A DNA stretch of 18,446 nucleotides, taken from a virus (lineage: Duplodnaviria; Heunggongvirae; Uroviricota; Caudoviricetes). The position numbers and the translations under genes were made by a program. Positions 1,418-8,271 of this stretch are shown here, one piece after another (within the stretch, counting starts at the first letter, position 1; the number at the start of each line of letters is the position of its first letter). The stretch is taken from IMG/VR virus record IMGVR_UViG_2526164613_000015; one strand, written 5' to 3'. The notes beneath the pieces were generated by a model that did not search any database, was not told where the DNA came from, and saw nothing but the letters and a program-made list of their open reading frames with translations.

Positions 1418-1675
1418 CTAATCTTCAAAAGCAGAAAAACCAGCCTTAATCCCAGCTTCTTTCAGAGACGGCAACGATGTGACAAATTCATTTTCACGCA
1501 AAATAAAACCATCCGTCACAAGTCCATCCACAAAGTAAATTAACGCAGCTCCACTCTTCCTATGTAGAGACTGTAAACATTTAATACGGCAGTGGCTGAC
1601 AATAGCGCCATTCTCAACGCGCACAGTATAGAGGCCATCTTCACTAAAAATTTCACGTAATTCTTCGATTTTCAT
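1418..1675 (-). CDS. small hypothetical prophage protein (85 aa); occupies the position that rem holds next to hokD in E. coli K-12 Qin
   Basis: ATG at 1675..1673 preceded by GGAAGGA Shine-Dalgarno 8 nt upstream; ORF-track version (1418..1723) likely over-extended. Synteny argument only. Confidence 0.5.
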   Translation of the reverse strand: MKIEELREIFSEDGLYTVRVENGAIVSHCRIKCLQSLHRKSGAALIYFVDGLVTDGFILRENEFVTSLPSLKEAGIKAGFSAFED

Positions 1676-1800
1676 CAACAGAATCCTTCCAGATAAATAG
1701 CACTCCCCCTGTTCGGGGTCCATCCCTCTTCTCCCTGCGCGCTACTTAAGTATTTTTGATTCTATTCTGGCACCGTCCAAAACTTCAAACACGTTGAAAA

Positions 1801-1827
1801 TAAAAACAAAAAACCCGCCGAAGCGGG
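1801..1827 (-). terminator. rho-independent terminator downstream of the HTH-ImmA gene
   Basis: Minus strand reads CCCGC-TTCG-GCGGG followed by TTTTTTGTTTTT; hairpin 1814..1827. Same hairpin sequence recurs at 3649..3662. Confidence 0.6.
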
Positions 1828-1832
1828 TATAC

Positions 1833-2939
1833 TCAAACAATCTGGAAAATATTTCTTGGATTTGTAATAGGTCTGTTGATGGAGAACAACTCACGAATTA
1901 AATCTTGGCTCAAGCCAGTTTTCATAAGAATTCTTAGCCAGGTTGCATCATCCAGCATTTCAATCGCCTCGGCCAGCATGCCGGGTTCTTCAGGGCGCAA
2001 AAGTTCATCACCAGGTTCAACTCTCGTATACCCTCTGGAATTAAGATGCATATAGCCAGTTCTTGCCTGTTCCTGGGTCAATAAGCCTAATGCGCTGGCT
2101 CGATAAATACACATTTTAAGGCTGATTTTCCATCTAAGTTTAAATTCAACCAGAGCATTCCAGTCGAATTGCTTACCTCGTATTCGTGGAAATTCTTTAA
2201 TGAAAGATAACCTGGGAACTAATAAGGCGCTCGAAAAGTGATCGGCTTGTGATTCCGTAAGTTTATCACCTGTCGTTATGCCCTCATGCATTACTAAATG
2301 CCCTAATTCATGACCTAAATCAGAGCGAAATCTACATATGCTTTTTTTAACATTGTTCCTGATGATAACAGGCCTGTTATTGTGAACAGTAAAAGCATCA
2401 ACACGATCATCGACTCCCGTAACATGCGCAACGATTACCCCTAAACTCTCCGCCAATTTAACCATTGATGATATAGGGCCAAGACCTAAATTCCAGGCAC
2501 GGCGACAATCTTCTGCCACTCGCTCAATATCATTCGGAGTAAGTAATTCAGCCCCTGGGTGCTCCGGTATGTTAACGTCAGGAAATTCGATTTCACCTTC
2601 AACAGCAGAAATTATAATATTAAGAATCTCAGCCCTGGCCAATACACTATTAGTCAGCGTTTGAGTCCTGGACTTCTTACTCCGAAAATGGCAGACATCA
2701 CTTTCCAGAGCGTATTTTCGTTCAGTAAAAAGAAAACTGGACTTAATCATAAGCGCTGAAGATATTAACTCAAGACATTGCTCCGATGGCCTGCACCCCT
2801 TCTCCAGTTTGCTAACAAATTGCTTTGTCTTGCCAATTTTTTCGGCTAACTCTTCACAAGAAAGCCCAACAGCCATTCTCGCTAGTTTGAGCTTATCACC
2901 CCGATACTCAGTGAAGTTATTCACCTGATGTTCCATCAC
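1833..2939 (-). CDS. fused XRE-type HTH / ImmA-IrrE family zinc metallopeptidase (COG2856-like), 368 aa
   Basis: N-terminal HTH (LARMAVGLSCEELAEKIGKTKQFVSKLEKG); HEXXH zinc-binding motif in SDLGHELGHLVMHEG; start is GTG at 2939 or ATG at 2936; overlaps upstream ORF by about 20 nt. Confidence 0.8.
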   Translation of the reverse strand: MMEHQVNNFTEYRGDKLKLARMAVGLSCEELAEKIGKTKQFVSKLEKGCRPSEQCLELISSALMIKSSFLFTERKYALESDVCHFRSKKSRTQTLTNSVLARAEILNIIISAVEGEIEFPDVNIPEHPGAELLTPNDIERVAEDCRRAWNLGLGPISSMVKLAESLGVIVAHVTGVDDRVDAFTVHNNRPVIIRNNVKKSICRFRSDLGHELGHLVMHEGITTGDKLTESQADHFSSALLVPRLSFIKEFPRIRGKQFDWNALVEFKLRWKISLKMCIYRASALGLLTQEQARTGYMHLNSRGYTRVEPGDELLRPEEPGMLAEAIEMLDDATWLRILMKTGLSQDLIRELFSINRPITNPRNIFQIV

Positions 2940-3567
2940 TGCTCACATCCAAATCTTTATCCTTCGTACGCCGACGAAGAGGCACCTTATTAATCTCCGC
3001 TTCGTCAGGGAGTGTGTTATAATCAAGAGGCATAAGCGGCATCGATGCTGTAGATTGATGAGAAACTATACTAATCTGAGCACCATAAGTATTAAATCCA
3101 ACAAGAGCTACCTCCCAACGAGGCAGTGTGGACTCTAATTCACCATCGCCCTCTTCGGATAAAAAAGGCTCAGCTATGACTCGCCATGTAATATCTTGCT
3201 CAGCCTCAACATCACCAAACAATGAGAGCTGCTCATACTCTACTTTATTTCGACGCAGACGATGTTTCTTTTTGGGGTTATTAATGCAATCTTTGGTAAA
3301 TTGTAGCGGAACTTTATTTAAAGCAACTACATAGTCCAACCCCTTGGAAATCATCTCAAGGCCAGGAATTGCATCTTCATTTTGAATAAGATGATTTCTG
3401 ACCCAATCATAAGCCCTTACACCTTCAGACCAGTTGCTGTCTAATGCGTGCTTATGATAGTACAGCTGCTCAAGTACGTTAGCGATCTCCGCCAACAAGT
3501 GGCGAACATAGTTTTCAGCAAGATAAGGTTGAAATTCCCAACAAGGAGCTAACTGATTTTCATTCAT
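2917..3567 (-). CDS. hypothetical acidic protein (216 aa), first gene of a two-gene operon with the HTH-ImmA peptidase
   Basis: ATG at 3567; no TM segments; acidic stretches (GDVEAEQD, SEEGDGELES); stop overlaps start of 1833..2939; preceded by promoter-like sequence with perfect TTGACA. Confidence 0.6.
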   Translation of the reverse strand: MNENQLAPCWEFQPYLAENYVRHLLAEIANVLEQLYYHKHALDSNWSEGVRAYDWVRNHLIQNEDAIPGLEMISKGLDYVVALNKVPLQFTKDCINNPKKKHRLRRNKVEYEQLSLFGDVEAEQDITWRVIAEPFLSEEGDGELESTLPRWEVALVGFNTYGAQISIVSHQSTASMPLMPLDYNTLPDEAEINKVPLRRRTKDKDLDVSSDGTSGE

Positions 3568-3595
3568 TTCAAGTTTCGCTTTTTTTAGAATTCGT

Positions 3596-3631
3596 AAACC
3601 ACATATTTTCGCATTTTTCTATTTTTGTCAA
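3596..3631 (-). promoter_or_regulatory. candidate sigma70 promoter for the 216-aa / HTH-ImmA operon
   Basis: Minus-strand TTGACA at 3631..3626, AT-rich spacer, weak -10 candidates (AAATAT/AATATG) about 17-18 nt downstream; about 35-60 nt upstream of the ATG at 3567. Confidence 0.35.
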
Positions 3632-3643
3632 CCAGACTAATGC

Positions 3644-3662
3644 AAAAACCCGCCGAAGCGGG
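3644..3662 (-). terminator. rho-independent terminator, probable 3' end of the hok transcript
   Basis: Minus strand CCCGC-TTCG-GCGGG followed by TTTTT; lies about 70 nt downstream of the hok stop; identical to hairpin at 1814..1827. Confidence 0.6.
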
Positions 3663-3732
3663 TTAAGTGCGGGTGCGTTGAGGATGCCTGGCACATCAGA
3701 GGTGGCGGGAGATTACTCCCCCGCCGGGTCTC

Positions 3733-3888
3733 TTACTCCTCAGGTTCGTAAGCTGTGAAGACAGCGACCTCCGTCTGGCCGGTTCGGATTCGTACCTCGC
3801 AGAGGTCTTTCCTCGTTACCAGTGCCGTCACTATGACGGTTAAACAGATGACGATCAGGGCGATTAACATCGCCTTTTGCTGCTTCAT
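3733..3888 (-). CDS. hokD: Hok/Gef family type I toxin (51 aa), HokD/RelF-like
   Basis: Manual translation of minus strand gives MKQQKAMLIALIVICLTVIVTALVTRKDLCEVRIRTGQTEVAVFTAYEPEE, matching HokD/RelF as recalled; single TM helix plus conserved C-terminal Cys region. Below the 60-aa ORF-track cutoff. Confidence 0.85.
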   Translation of the reverse strand: MKQQKAMLIALIVICLTVIVTALVTRKDLCEVRIRTGQTEVAVFTAYEPEE

Positions 3889-4099
3889 AGCCTGCTTCTC
3901 CTTGACCTTTTGGTCCGTAAGAGGCTAATCTCTATGTGTCGCATAGATATGGCCTCAGATTAATGTTAAGCGTCTTGCAGGACGCGTAATGTTAACTGGG
4001 GCTTTTCTCTATCTGCCTTTTGGTGTTCATGCCTGAGGCAGATAGCCTCAAGCACCCGCAGCAATTCTACTTAACTCCCGTCACCTCGCCAATATAAAA

Positions 4100-4259: not shown

Positions 4260-5291
4260 CTACCAATCAATAAAATCAGTGATGTTATCCAACCTAATTA
4301 CAGTAACTTCCCGTCTCAACTGGTTTTTCCAATATATCTCACGAGCGTTTTGTTCACCAGCACCGCTCCACTCAATTACTCTTAAAGGCTTAGAGGTTAG
4401 GTAAGGTCGAATAAGCAGGTTAAGGTGAATATCGAGACCAGAGTAACCAAACAATATTATTTCTTCTGATTCAAATAATGCAAACTGCAAATAATCCCAG
4501 TACGTAGAAAGAACATTAGATGCTGCTATAACTGACGGTTTTCTTTTTATATGAGTTAACACTATATGCTCACTAGGTTCATCTATGTCAAGAGTAAGTT
4601 GTGAGCGTGAAAGTTTTAAAACATTTTCATGCTGATTAATAAATAGTGGTGAACCATGCAAGTGCAAATAATAACCAAACCTACGATTGTATTTCCGTTC
4701 GAGCGCTGCAGAGGAAAATCCGTGGCTTAGCATCCCATCAACTAAAACCCCATCATACCCGTTGAATATATCATTATCTATGAATGAATTGTATAATAAT
4801 TTGTCATAGTTTAATGTCGCGATATGTGAGTGTGTGTTCTTTACAAACTCCACAAGCGCATTTTCGAATCTTTGTGGCAAACCTTTATCGTAATTATGCA
4901 ACCTGGTTGCAACTTTGTGAATATAAGTGGCGGTAATTTTGGGGAAGTTTAGTCCATCTTCAGTAAGCCAATGCACGTTCCCCTCTCCAATTTGAGCAAG
5001 AGCTTTACAATATGTGACAGCCTGGTGAAGGGTATCCAACTCATGTTCTCCTTCTGGTGGACCTTGCCGCTGAAGACAACGCTCGATAAGTTGCTTGTGG
5101 ATATCTTTTAAAAAATTGGGGCGATGCCAAATTTCTTCCAACGCTCTGTCTAAGGAGAAGTGAGCAGGATCTAAAGCCATACCGAGACCGTTGCCGAATA
5201 TTATTAATTTTCTTGCCATATAGGGGGACTCATATTGGAATAACGCTGGATAGCGTAGCGCGATACGCTTAAGTTTAGGATTAATAGACAT
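4260..5291 (-). CDS. SIR2-like (sirtuin-fold, SIR2_2/DUF4020-type) putative NADase, 343 aa, stand-alone
   Basis: Ordered motifs LIIFGNGLGMA (Gly-rich loop), ATLNYDKLL, YLHLHGS, ILFGYSGLD as in defence-associated SIR2 domains; gene and 370-bp upstream region are markedly AT-rich. Confidence 0.8.
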   Translation of the reverse strand: MSINPKLKRIALRYPALFQYESPYMARKLIIFGNGLGMALDPAHFSLDRALEEIWHRPNFLKDIHKQLIERCLQRQGPPEGEHELDTLHQAVTYCKALAQIGEGNVHWLTEDGLNFPKITATYIHKVATRLHNYDKGLPQRFENALVEFVKNTHSHIATLNYDKLLYNSFIDNDIFNGYDGVLVDGMLSHGFSSAALERKYNRRFGYYLHLHGSPLFINQHENVLKLSRSQLTLDIDEPSEHIVLTHIKRKPSVIAASNVLSTYWDYLQFALFESEEIILFGYSGLDIHLNLLIRPYLTSKPLRVIEWSGAGEQNAREIYWKNQLRREVTVIRLDNITDFIDW

Positions 5292-7073: not shown

Positions 7074-7575
7074 AATTCCATCCAGCTTTTTGTTGGTATT
7101 GCTGTCGATACGCAAGTTTGAAAGCAATTGCTTTTTCTATAAGTTCGTCAGTTTCACGATCCACTACGGCAGGATCAGCAAAAAGCAGTCCGGACTCCAC
7201 CACATCGCCATATTCTTTGTTTAACCCGGCGATCATGTACGTGATGCTTTTTCCGTCACTAATTTCACGATACAACCTGAAATCATTAATCCGGATAGCC
7301 TCCATAATTGCAGGCACTAGCGCCGTGAACTTTTCACGCTTATCCCTAGTGTCGATAGCCTTCCAGCGTTCGAATATCTTCACTCGATTAACGCCAAGCG
7401 CTCGCTGATCAACCGCGCCACCTTCATCTGTGACACGCTGAACCTCGATGTTCGGGCGCTCTTTCAAAGCCCAGAATGCTTCAGTGATTAATATCGTCGC
7501 CTGCTCCTGTGTCATTCCTGGTCGACATATCCAGGCATCCAGAGCCTCACGAGCCTGTTCAGGAGTGATTTTCAT
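7054..7575 (-). CDS. hypothetical early-region protein (173 aa) at the CII/YdaT position downstream of the cro-like gene
   Basis: ATG at 7575; overlaps the cro-like stop by 17 nt and the initiator start by about 20 nt, indicating an operon; family not securely recognised. Confidence 0.55.
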   Translation of the reverse strand: MKITPEQAREALDAWICRPGMTQEQATILITEAFWALKERPNIEVQRVTDEGGAVDQRALGVNRVKIFERWKAIDTRDKREKFTALVPAIMEAIRINDFRLYREISDGKSITYMIAGLNKEYGDVVESGLLFADPAVVDRETDELIEKAIAFKLAYRQQYQQKAGWNYEPSFC

Positions 7576-7786
7576 TGTTCAACCGCCCCGCCCGCTTCGT
7601 CTTACGATATTCGTCATAAACCTTGGGATCATACTGAAGCTCGCCGCCAGATGCCTCCTGTAGACGCATCGCGCGACCTTCAGGAACCAGCTCTTGCCAT
7701 TGAGAAACAGCAGATGGGTCAACGCCAGCAGCTTTCGCTACTTTAGCTTTCGTACCGTAAAAATTAATTACGTCTGATTTAAACAT
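7559..7786 (-). CDS. dicC: Cro-like regulator, DicC/YdaS-like (75 aa)
   Basis: ATG at 7786 with GGAGG 4 nt upstream; sequence ...VPEGRAMRLQEASGGELQYDPKVYDEYRKTKRAG resembles DicC as recalled; divergent from the repressor gene. Confidence 0.7.
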   Translation of the reverse strand: MFKSDVINFYGTKAKVAKAAGVDPSAVSQWQELVPEGRAMRLQEASGGELQYDPKVYDEYRKTKRAGRLNNENHS

Positions 7787-7798
7787 CGCACCTCCAAT

Positions 7799-7814
7799 AT
7801 TGAGTTTTCTCAAT
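7799..7814. promoter_or_regulatory. candidate operator in the dicA/dicC-like divergent promoter region
   Basis: Perfect palindrome ATTGAG-TTTT-CTCAAT, with CTCAAGGAATCTCAAG half-site repeats at 7822-7837, in the 77-bp intergenic region. Confidence 0.45.
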
Positions 7815-7863
7815 GCTAATCACTCAAGGAATCTCAAGCCAAGGGTTATTAAGATATCTAAAT

Positions 7864-8271
7864 ATGAACGAGAAAACTTTAGGTCAACGCATTAGAGAAA
7901 GACGTAAGCAGGTAGGCTTAAGTCAAAACGGTTTAAGCAAAGCTGCTGGCGTATCTGGCTCATCAATTTCATTATGGGAAAGTGACCATACAGCCCCGCG
8001 CGGGCAAAATTTGCATCGCCTCGCCGAGGTATTGCAATGTTCACCAACCTGGATACTGTTTGGCGACGAGGACAAAACACCAGCTCCCCCTGTTTCACTC
8101 GATAGTGCCTTAGACTTATCGGAAGATGAGTTAGAGATGTTGCGTTTGTATCGCGCACTTCCTAAATCAGAGCAACAAGCACAACTCAGCGAACTCCGCG
8201 CCCGCGTTGAGAATTTTAATCGCCTGTTCACCGAGCTATTAGAGGCTCGCAAACGCAACAAGCATCAATAA
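7864..8271 (+). CDS. dicA: CI-type prophage repressor, DicA-like XRE HTH protein (135 aa)
   Basis: HTH LGQRIRERRKQVGLSQNGLSKAAGVSGSSISLWES; motifs VLQCSPTWILFGDEDK and RARVENFNRLF resemble DicA as recalled; ATG at 7864 gives DicA-like length (ORF track starts at 7813). Confidence 0.8.
   Translation: MNEKTLGQRIRERRKQVGLSQNGLSKAAGVSGSSISLWESDHTAPRGQNLHRLAEVLQCSPTWILFGDEDKTPAPPVSLDSALDLSEDELEMLRLYRALPKSEQQAQLSELRARVENFNRLFTELLEARKRNKHQ

Follow-up and report, generated by a model that had tools for sequence, protein, structure and literature searches.

The window, by which we mean the whole analyzed stretch of 18,446 nucleotides (nt) from IMG/VR record IMGVR_UViG_2526164613_000015, matches a lambdoid prophage of Escherichia coli O55:H7 DEC5B with 100% identity. 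Here, we analyzed a two-gene cassette of this prophage, which has the replication genes on one side and the DUF968-RusA-Q region on the other. All of its elements are encoded on the minus strand, and their order in the direction of transcription is hokD, a terminator (copy R), a leader, rmrT, rmrA, a second terminator (copy L), and a rem homologue. The first gene, rmrT (2917-3567), encodes a predicted toxin, a soluble protein of 216 amino acids (aa) with an isoelectric point of 4.9. The second gene, rmrA (1833-2936), encodes 367 aa from an ATG codon, or 368 aa from a GTG codon at 2939. Depending on which rmrA start is taken, the two open reading frames (ORFs) overlap by 20-23 nt, and the genes are translationally coupled between one promoter-like leader and one terminator. 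An earlier note on this DNA, made from the letters alone, had placed two overlapping genes between hokD and the gene in the position of rem; the two minus-strand ORFs and the rem homologue downstream of them agree with that description.

The product of the second gene, RmrA, carries an XRE helix-turn-helix (HTH) domain at about residues 14-63 (Pfam HTH_3, PF01381, E = 5e-7) and a Peptidase_M78/ImmA-IrrE domain (PF06114, E = 6e-11) with the sequence H209-E-L-G-H213. The Pfam domains and this HELGH motif confirmed the earlier reading of an XRE HTH fused to a HEXXH peptidase. The HEXXH motif and several other residues did not vary among six RmrA proteins with identities as low as 32%. In PADLOC, the best-fitting model was the RmrA model PDLC03943 (E = 6.2e-105, residues 12-351), and thirteen other RmrA models also matched, in line with the guess of the earlier note that this is a Rosmer-type RmrA. 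The protein further matched PHROG 2439 and reached 155.9 bits with the NCBIfam model for spr1629, well below the 335-bit cut-off of that model. The linker that joins the HTH to the peptidase (residues 82-90; window 2668-2695, minus strand) reads C-H-F-R-S-K-K-S-R. Its C82, F84, R85, and S89 were invariant in RmrA proteins to 32% identity, and this linker could be a self-cleavage or regulatory site.

The product of the first gene, RmrT, matched the PADLOC model PDLC03929 with an E value of 4.6e-25 (residues 7-209 on positions 5-195 of 198) and PHROG 5786, and it had no match in Pfam, NCBIfam, or the sequences of the PDB. Relatives of RmrT that are distant in sequence were likewise recognized by PDLC03929. 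The acidic partner had previously been described as having no recognizable domain. This holds for Pfam and NCBIfam, but the protein is catalogued in a defined family of RmrT toxins. RmrT has no hydrophobic stretch that could form a membrane helix. From the PADLOC matches to RmrT and RmrA and the domain make-up, the pair is therefore a RosmerTA system (Millman et al. 2022). This kind of system is already catalogued, and standard defense-finding tools would label the cassette Rosmer. Overall, we consider it likely, at a probability of roughly 0.8, that the unit represents a toxin-antitoxin module of the RosmerTA type, with a candidate role in defense against phages, and sits as an autonomous moron at the hokD terminator of the E. 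coli O55:H7 lambdoid prophage. The Rosmer system of E. coli OLC-716 defends against phage, and a construct with its rmrA deleted was not transformable (bioRxiv 10.1101/2022.05.11.491447). RmrA is treated as an ImmA-protease antitoxin that pairs with diverse RmrT toxins (PMC10440598). By analogy with the tested Rosmer systems in which rmrA was undeletable, RmrT would be a soluble toxin restrained by RmrA. Phage protection has been shown only for the Rosmer systems of OLC-716 and of Gordonia phage Kita (10.1101/2022.05.11.491447, PMC10440598).

The boundaries of the cassette were defined by comparison with the phages PPompW_132418 and mEp460_ev081, which are free of the insert. In both, hokD adjoins rem, and a single copy of the terminator lies at the junction. 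Positions 1300-1828 and 3643-4077 of the window aligned to positions 1501-2027 and 2007-2419 of PPompW_132418, respectively, and the two alignments overlapped exactly by the terminator. Because the insert-free phages hold one copy and the homology breaks there, the insert amounts to 1835 bp, namely the cassette plus one terminator, and the earlier claim of a repeat-bounded insertion of 1.8 kb is thus confirmed as to its boundaries. The G+C content of the cassette was 41.5%, as against ~50% in the flanks. Only the Rosmer genes lie between the repeats; there is neither a transposase nor an integrase.

Morons of lambdoid phages are said, after Juhala and Hendrix in 2000, to be autonomous insertions of promoter, gene, and terminator between genes that are adjacent in relatives. 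The cassette fits this classical anatomy as far as its sequence can tell, since it lies between hokD and rem, which are neighbors in PPompW, mEp460, and many E. coli prophages, and since it has its own terminator, a promoter-like leader, and a deviating G+C content. It differs from the description in having two genes instead of one, and its promoter activity is a prediction.

The leader (3572-3633, minus strand) resembles a promoter with operators, and we assign it this putative function from its sequence. A perfect -35 hexamer TTGACA is found at 3631-3626 on the minus strand, and TGCGAAAAT is a possible weak extended -10 element. The leader also contains an imperfect 29-nt tandem repeat, GGTTGACAAAAATAGAAAAATGCGAAAAT and GGTTTACGAATTCTAAAAAAAGCGAAACT (3633-3605 and 3600-3572), with 20 of 29 positions identical and a period of 33. 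This region was conserved in two variants of the cassette with 94% and 80% identity. The elements GTTGAC and GCGAA each also occur twice upstream of the Xenorhabdus homologue. The repeated GTTGAC/GCGAA units are candidate operators of the RmrA HTH, through which RmrA probably autoregulates the cassette.

Next, the structure of RmrT was predicted by AlphaFold2 with an alignment of 54 family sequences, which replaced a model from 15 close homologues with a predicted local distance difference test score (pLDDT) of 64.9. The resulting model had a pLDDT of 85.5 and a predicted template modeling score of 0.75. It comprises a pair of long helices at the N terminus, a sheet segment of three strands, a helical loop region, and another three strands, and the predicted fold is weakly restriction-endonuclease-like. 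A Foldseek search of the model against the viral structures of BFVD returned nothing meaningful. The conserved residues of the family are D43, W46, G49, R51, Y53, P87, F90, P98, E110, Q113, L116, W128, R129, and G157.

Two of these conserved residues, Q113 and L116, fall into the sequence Q113-L-S-L-F117, which corresponds to QL(S/D)LF, the bacterial consensus for binding to the beta sliding clamp (PMC9690074). The sequence spans the end of the helix at 108-115 and the next loop, which is the least confident part of the core (pLDDT ~76). Among the linear features of the RmrT family, the pattern E-x-x-Q-[LM]-x-L-[FL] is conserved best, with E110 conserved in 91%, Q113 in 80%, and L116 in 72% of 54 members; QLSLL, QLSLPL, QMSLL, and QLPLF occur as variants. 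The clamp-motif pattern was present at the aligned site in 44 of 74 RmrT sequences, and it occurred anywhere in the protein in 3.4% of 1845 background ORFs.

Related motifs were observed in two other Rosmer toxin families. In the family of the OLC-716 RmrT, the motif reads QLKLDL in Enterobacterales and NLDLF in the Vibrionaceae relatives, and its location is comparable, with a lysine-rich segment on one side and a strand containing tryptophan on the other. For the Streptococcus pneumoniae toxin RipA (Spr1630), the sequence was recovered from a Streptococcus mitis genome (locus L143:3874-5771) via a published primer sequence. The RipA family has an invariant internal motif, Q141-[ML]-E-L-[VIF] (QMELV or QMELF). 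An N-terminal QDLF of RipA was also considered as a clamp motif and rejected, as it is not conserved in the family, in contrast to the invariant internal one. RipA binds DnaN in two-hybrid assays, and substitutions in DnaN's hydrophobic pocket suppress the toxicity of RipA (PMC12795458). The RipA paper reports these genetics of the DnaN cleft and mentions no motif (PMC12795458), so a link between the motif of these Rosmer toxins and DnaN would be new. Pairwise and profile-profile comparisons of the three RmrT families gave no significant match. The best profile-profile E value was 0.067, between the family of the window and that of OLC-716, collinear over 136 columns. Since these comparisons were not significant, we do not claim a common ancestry of the three families.

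Two further lines of published work bear on the motif. The toxin SocB of Caulobacter poisons the beta clamp via a clamp-binding motif (PMC9690074), and ClpX or ClpP is needed by carriers of Rosmer systems, namely E. coli E101, S. pneumoniae, and three Pectobacteriaceae (10.1101/2020.05.25.114553; PMC12795458; PMC13566846). On the strength of the motif consensus and its conservation, the RipA-DnaN genetics, SocB, and the need for ClpX/ClpP, we propose that RmrT acts by occupying the clamp. The conserved QLSLF loop would dock into the DnaN beta sliding clamp's hydrophobic cleft, and this docking would block replication of the host, and of a phage that depends on the host clamp, when the control by RmrA fails during infection. 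We hold this proposal for RmrT tentatively, at a little under an even chance. A broader claim, which we also place just on the unfavorable side of a coin toss, is that the loop Q-[LM]-x-L-hydrophobic is a genuine clamp-binding motif and the functional core of the PDLC03929, OLC-716, and RipA families; many Rosmer systems might then be clamp-poisoning abortive-infection modules held by RmrA, possibly together with ClpXP. For the mode of action of Rosmer toxins, a motif of the QLSLF type offers a cheap and direct hypothesis.

A different mode of killing would follow if RmrT were a PD-(D/E)XK nuclease toxin that cuts DNA, possibly while tethered to the clamp, rather than simply occupying the clamp. 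The model described above makes a nuclease-like fold plausible. The signature D...(D/E)xK was not conserved in the RmrT family, in which the candidate residues D78 and K92 vary and the positions that are conserved lie elsewhere, and nuclease activity is unsupported. We regard DNA cutting by RmrT as unlikely.

Several points weigh against the Rosmer reading of the cassette and against clamp occupation by RmrT. The toxicity of RmrT, its neutralization by RmrA, and protection against phage would hold by analogy with other Rosmer systems, and no published experiment on the PDLC03929 family of RmrT was found in the literature. A tblastn search with RmrT gave 0 matches in 50,697 deposited phage genomes, so that carriage by active phages is unproven. 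As for the cassette's own TTGACA promoter that the earlier note had proposed, the hexamer itself is in place, but a consensus promoter scan of the leader reported no full promoter because the -10 element is weak. Concerning the clamp, 30 of the 74 RmrT members fail the strict pattern. The clamp reading of QLSLF was noticed post hoc, and the part of the motif within helix 108-115 could be structural in the model. The "equivalent position" of the motifs in the three families is a judgment rather than an alignment result, because there is no significant profile similarity. Furthermore, the Rosmer toxin of Gordonia phage Kita acts on the membrane (PMC10440598), so Rosmer toxins are not uniform.

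We then analyzed how the cassette is distributed. Among 5426 complete E. coli genomes, 237 carried it; the identity to the window was at least 99% for 224 of the 238 matching E. coli records. In 226 E. coli genomes, the match extended over the hokD and rem flanks. The empty hokD-rem junction was far commoner than the occupied one. From these frequencies, the cassette is accessory and not a core phage pair, and it is absent from closely related prophages; the view that the pair is not part of the core of such prophages is thereby upheld. Close homologues of RmrT occurred in Enterobacter, Buttiauxella, Serratia, Salmonella, Plesiomonas, and Xenorhabdus. When 1.84 billion representatives were searched with a profile, 70 clusters were obtained, nearly all of ~200 aa. 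On every contig of sufficient length, RmrT relatives with as little as 22% identity were followed by an overlapping gene of ~368 aa with HTH and M78 domains. A survey of the pair in other genomes, which the earlier note had suggested, thus found the toxin-first overlapping arrangement kept across mobile elements. Related pairs were carried by a lambdoid prophage of Xenorhabdus, by a Tn7-like element with TniB/TniQ, and by an integrase island. One distant RmrT/RmrA pair, with 19% toxin identity (locus L012:1-4705), lies directly downstream of genes for Mu-transposase-C, TniB, and TniQ, and from this gene order it is apparently cargo of a Tn7-like element. In E. coli variants of the cassette, toxin and antitoxin identities were 84.7% versus 92.6% in one and 94.0% versus 97.8% in another, that is, the toxin diverges faster.

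These contexts also bear on whether the pair might be an addiction module, which would stabilize the prophage by post-segregational killing and have no role in phage defense. Such a role would suit the toxin-antitoxin architecture, the position next to hok/sok, and the possible need for retention of a prophage that may be defective, given its frameshifted RusA and DUF6645 genes. Moreover, Rosmer toxins are lethal in non-infected cells in a ClpX/ClpP-dependent manner (PMC13566846; 10.1101/2020.05.25.114553). However, two other Rosmer systems protect against phages, the cassette occupies a variable cargo region beside a SIR2-domain gene, and its relatives reside on Tn7-like and integrase islands typical of defense cargo. 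Addiction and defense are not mutually exclusive, and we judge a purely addictive function to be improbable.

The terminators at both ends of the insert were then considered. The exact direct repeat AAAAACCCGCCGAAGCGGGT of 20 nt occurs at 1809-1828 and 3644-3663. The earlier note had given it as 1807-1828 and 3643-3663; its positions were correct to within 1-2 nt, but the exact repeat is 20 nt rather than 21-22 nt long, as the longer coordinates include an additional C and one difference in the number of A residues (6 versus 5) between the copies. Two matches of the 20-nt repeat were obtained in 0 of 200 dinucleotide shuffles, although the identity of the copies is less striking than this test implies, because the 20-mer is a widespread generic terminator. 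Both copies scored as intrinsic terminators on the minus strand, with the stem ACCCGC/GCGGGU, a UUCG loop, and a U-run, and with folding energies of -10.9 and -15.1 kcal/mol, which bears out the identical terminators seen in the two repeats before. Copy L (1809-1828) lies 4 nt past the stop codon of rmrA, and its flank on the rem side is identical to the insert-free phages. Copy R (3644-3663) is the terminator after hokD and marks the position of the sole copy in the insert-free relatives.

This 20-mer was present in at least 120 IMG/VR contigs, and among the IMG/VR matches listed, only 17 of 124 occurrences had a hok flank beside it. In many E. coli prophages, the hok terminator is the exact starting point of homology to the hok region, and rem is absent; as far as these alignments go, the hok terminator behaves as a mosaic junction. 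A survey of cargo within 2 kb of the same terminator found only empty sites, insertion-sequence insertions, and rem-less junctions. The 94% variant of the cassette that adjoins hokD has kept both terminators, each with one substitution of its own. The 80%-identical cassette of strain KL53 lies at another prophage position, with no hok, a different terminator, and no repeat, and its homology ends with the stop codon on one side and a little upstream of the -35 hexamer on the other. In view of the generic 20-mer, the KL53 copy, the 94% variant, and the rem-less hok junctions, the repeat is not a specific insertion footprint. Its use as an insertion signature, as proposed before, gives way to that of an ordinary, widely used terminator.

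The repeats could in principle be a target-site duplication or the footprint of an attachment site left by a dedicated insertion mechanism, as they are exact, bound the insert precisely, and are single in the empty sites. However, the 1.8-kb unit contains neither a transposase nor an integrase, and terminal inverted repeats were looked for in it and not found. The repeat is a complete functional terminator in more than 100 unrelated viral contexts, and the beginning of hok-region homology at the terminator in many prophages is simply what a mosaic junction would be expected to give. Target-site duplication was rejected on the KL53 copy and the generic occurrence of the 20-mer, and a footprint of any dedicated mechanism is highly unlikely. 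In the simplest reading of the sequences, the repeats are a generic terminator that is present twice, with the first copy belonging to hokD and the other ending the cassette. A common and very stable terminator hairpin was probably the short shared homology at which the cassette recombined in. Comparison with the empty sites illustrates how the hairpin of a generic terminator can serve as a junction for swapping a cassette of promoter, genes, and terminator.

A derepression switch of the ImmA/ImmR or IrrE/DdrO type for the induction or gene expression of the prophage, which the earlier note had brought up and which the fusion of an M78 ImmA/IrrE peptidase to an XRE DNA-binding domain and the location inside a prophage might suggest, is hardly credible, as the prophage has separate Cro/CI-type genes, closely related prophages do without the cassette, its own terminator insulates it, an RmrT-type partner is always present even outside prophages, and PADLOC assigns RmrA rather than just a generic M78 group.

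The surroundings of the Rosmer cassette were as follows. Its upstream neighbor is hokD (3733-3888, minus strand; Pfam HOK_GEF, E = 1.2e-23), which is preceded by the sok/mok regulatory region (3886-4057, minus strand; Rfam RF01794 sok, 107.5 bits). The downstream neighbor, the rem homologue (1418-1723, minus strand, with an alternative start at 1678), aligned to the annotated rem of PPompW and mEp460 and matched PHROG 340. At 4260-5291 of the window, the minus strand encodes a 343-aa protein with a SIR2_2 domain (Pfam E = 1e-5) and a G+C content of 39%. In PADLOC, this protein gave weak matches to Aga_SIR2 and PDC-S21, and its gene is possibly a stand-alone defense gene. It occupies a second variable slot, from the replication genes to hok/sok, which is filled in sister prophages by paa/adfO, queH, a chaperonin gene, or a pair of hypothetical genes. 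The region from the replication genes to Q in lambdoid prophages thus gathers defense and toxin-antitoxin cargo, here with hok/sok, Rosmer, and the SIR2-domain gene adjacent. Cro/CI-type immunity genes are annotated separately in the prophage, at about 7559-8271 of the window. In the 35-kb context of DEC5B, RusA, DUF6645, YdfR, and TrmB-like genes are annotated as frameshifted or truncated, and because several genes are affected, the host prophage may be defective. Genes for NleG-type effectors follow the integrase in this context.

Finally, we compared the cassette with known systems. ImmA/ImmR of ICEBs1 and PD-lambda-2 (HigB, an Xre-peptidase, and a third gene; Vassallo 2022) also link an M78/ImmA peptidase with an XRE function. 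In contrast, the HTH and the peptidase of RmrA are fused in one protein, and the cassette has no separate repressor substrate, HigB-like partner, or third gene. The resemblance to the Rosmer system of OLC-716 covers a toxin-first two-gene operon, an XRE-HTH/zinc-peptidase RmrA of ~370 aa, an acidic toxin of ~200-240 aa with no known domain, and carriage on mobile elements. The toxins themselves belong to different families, PDLC03935 in OLC-716 and PDLC03929 in the window, and neither their sequences nor their profiles are significantly similar. The ClpP-dependent prophage toxin E101_02645 (WP_001179380.1) of Rousset et al., for which a suppressor T46S was described (10.1101/2020.05.25.114553), probably belongs to the OLC-716 family and not to that of the window, because position 46 holds T in the RmrT family of OLC-716 and W in the toxin of the window.

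With regard to the clamp, SocAB of Caulobacter crescentus offers a parallel in its toxin SocB, which is degraded by ClpXP and binds in the DnaN cleft via a QL(S/D)LF-like motif, the mode of binding that we propose for RmrT (PMC9690074). The analogy is functional only; the proteins and the antitoxin logic are unrelated, and SocA is a proteolytic adaptor and not an HTH-peptidase. RipA/RipB (Spr1630/Spr1629) of S. pneumoniae has the same architecture as the cassette. RipB matched RmrA models and RipA an RmrT model, and a mid-protein Q-[LM]-x-L-hydrophobic motif is conserved in the families of RipA and of the window toxin. The two toxins differ in that RipA falls into PDLC03931, with an hhalign probability below 1% against the window RmrT, and in that RipA targets DnaN and is ClpX-sensitive, whereas targeting of DnaN by the window RmrT is predicted only. 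If the prediction is true, binding in the DnaN cleft would tie E. coli defense systems to the pneumococcal RipA and to the need of Rosmer carriers for ClpX/ClpP.

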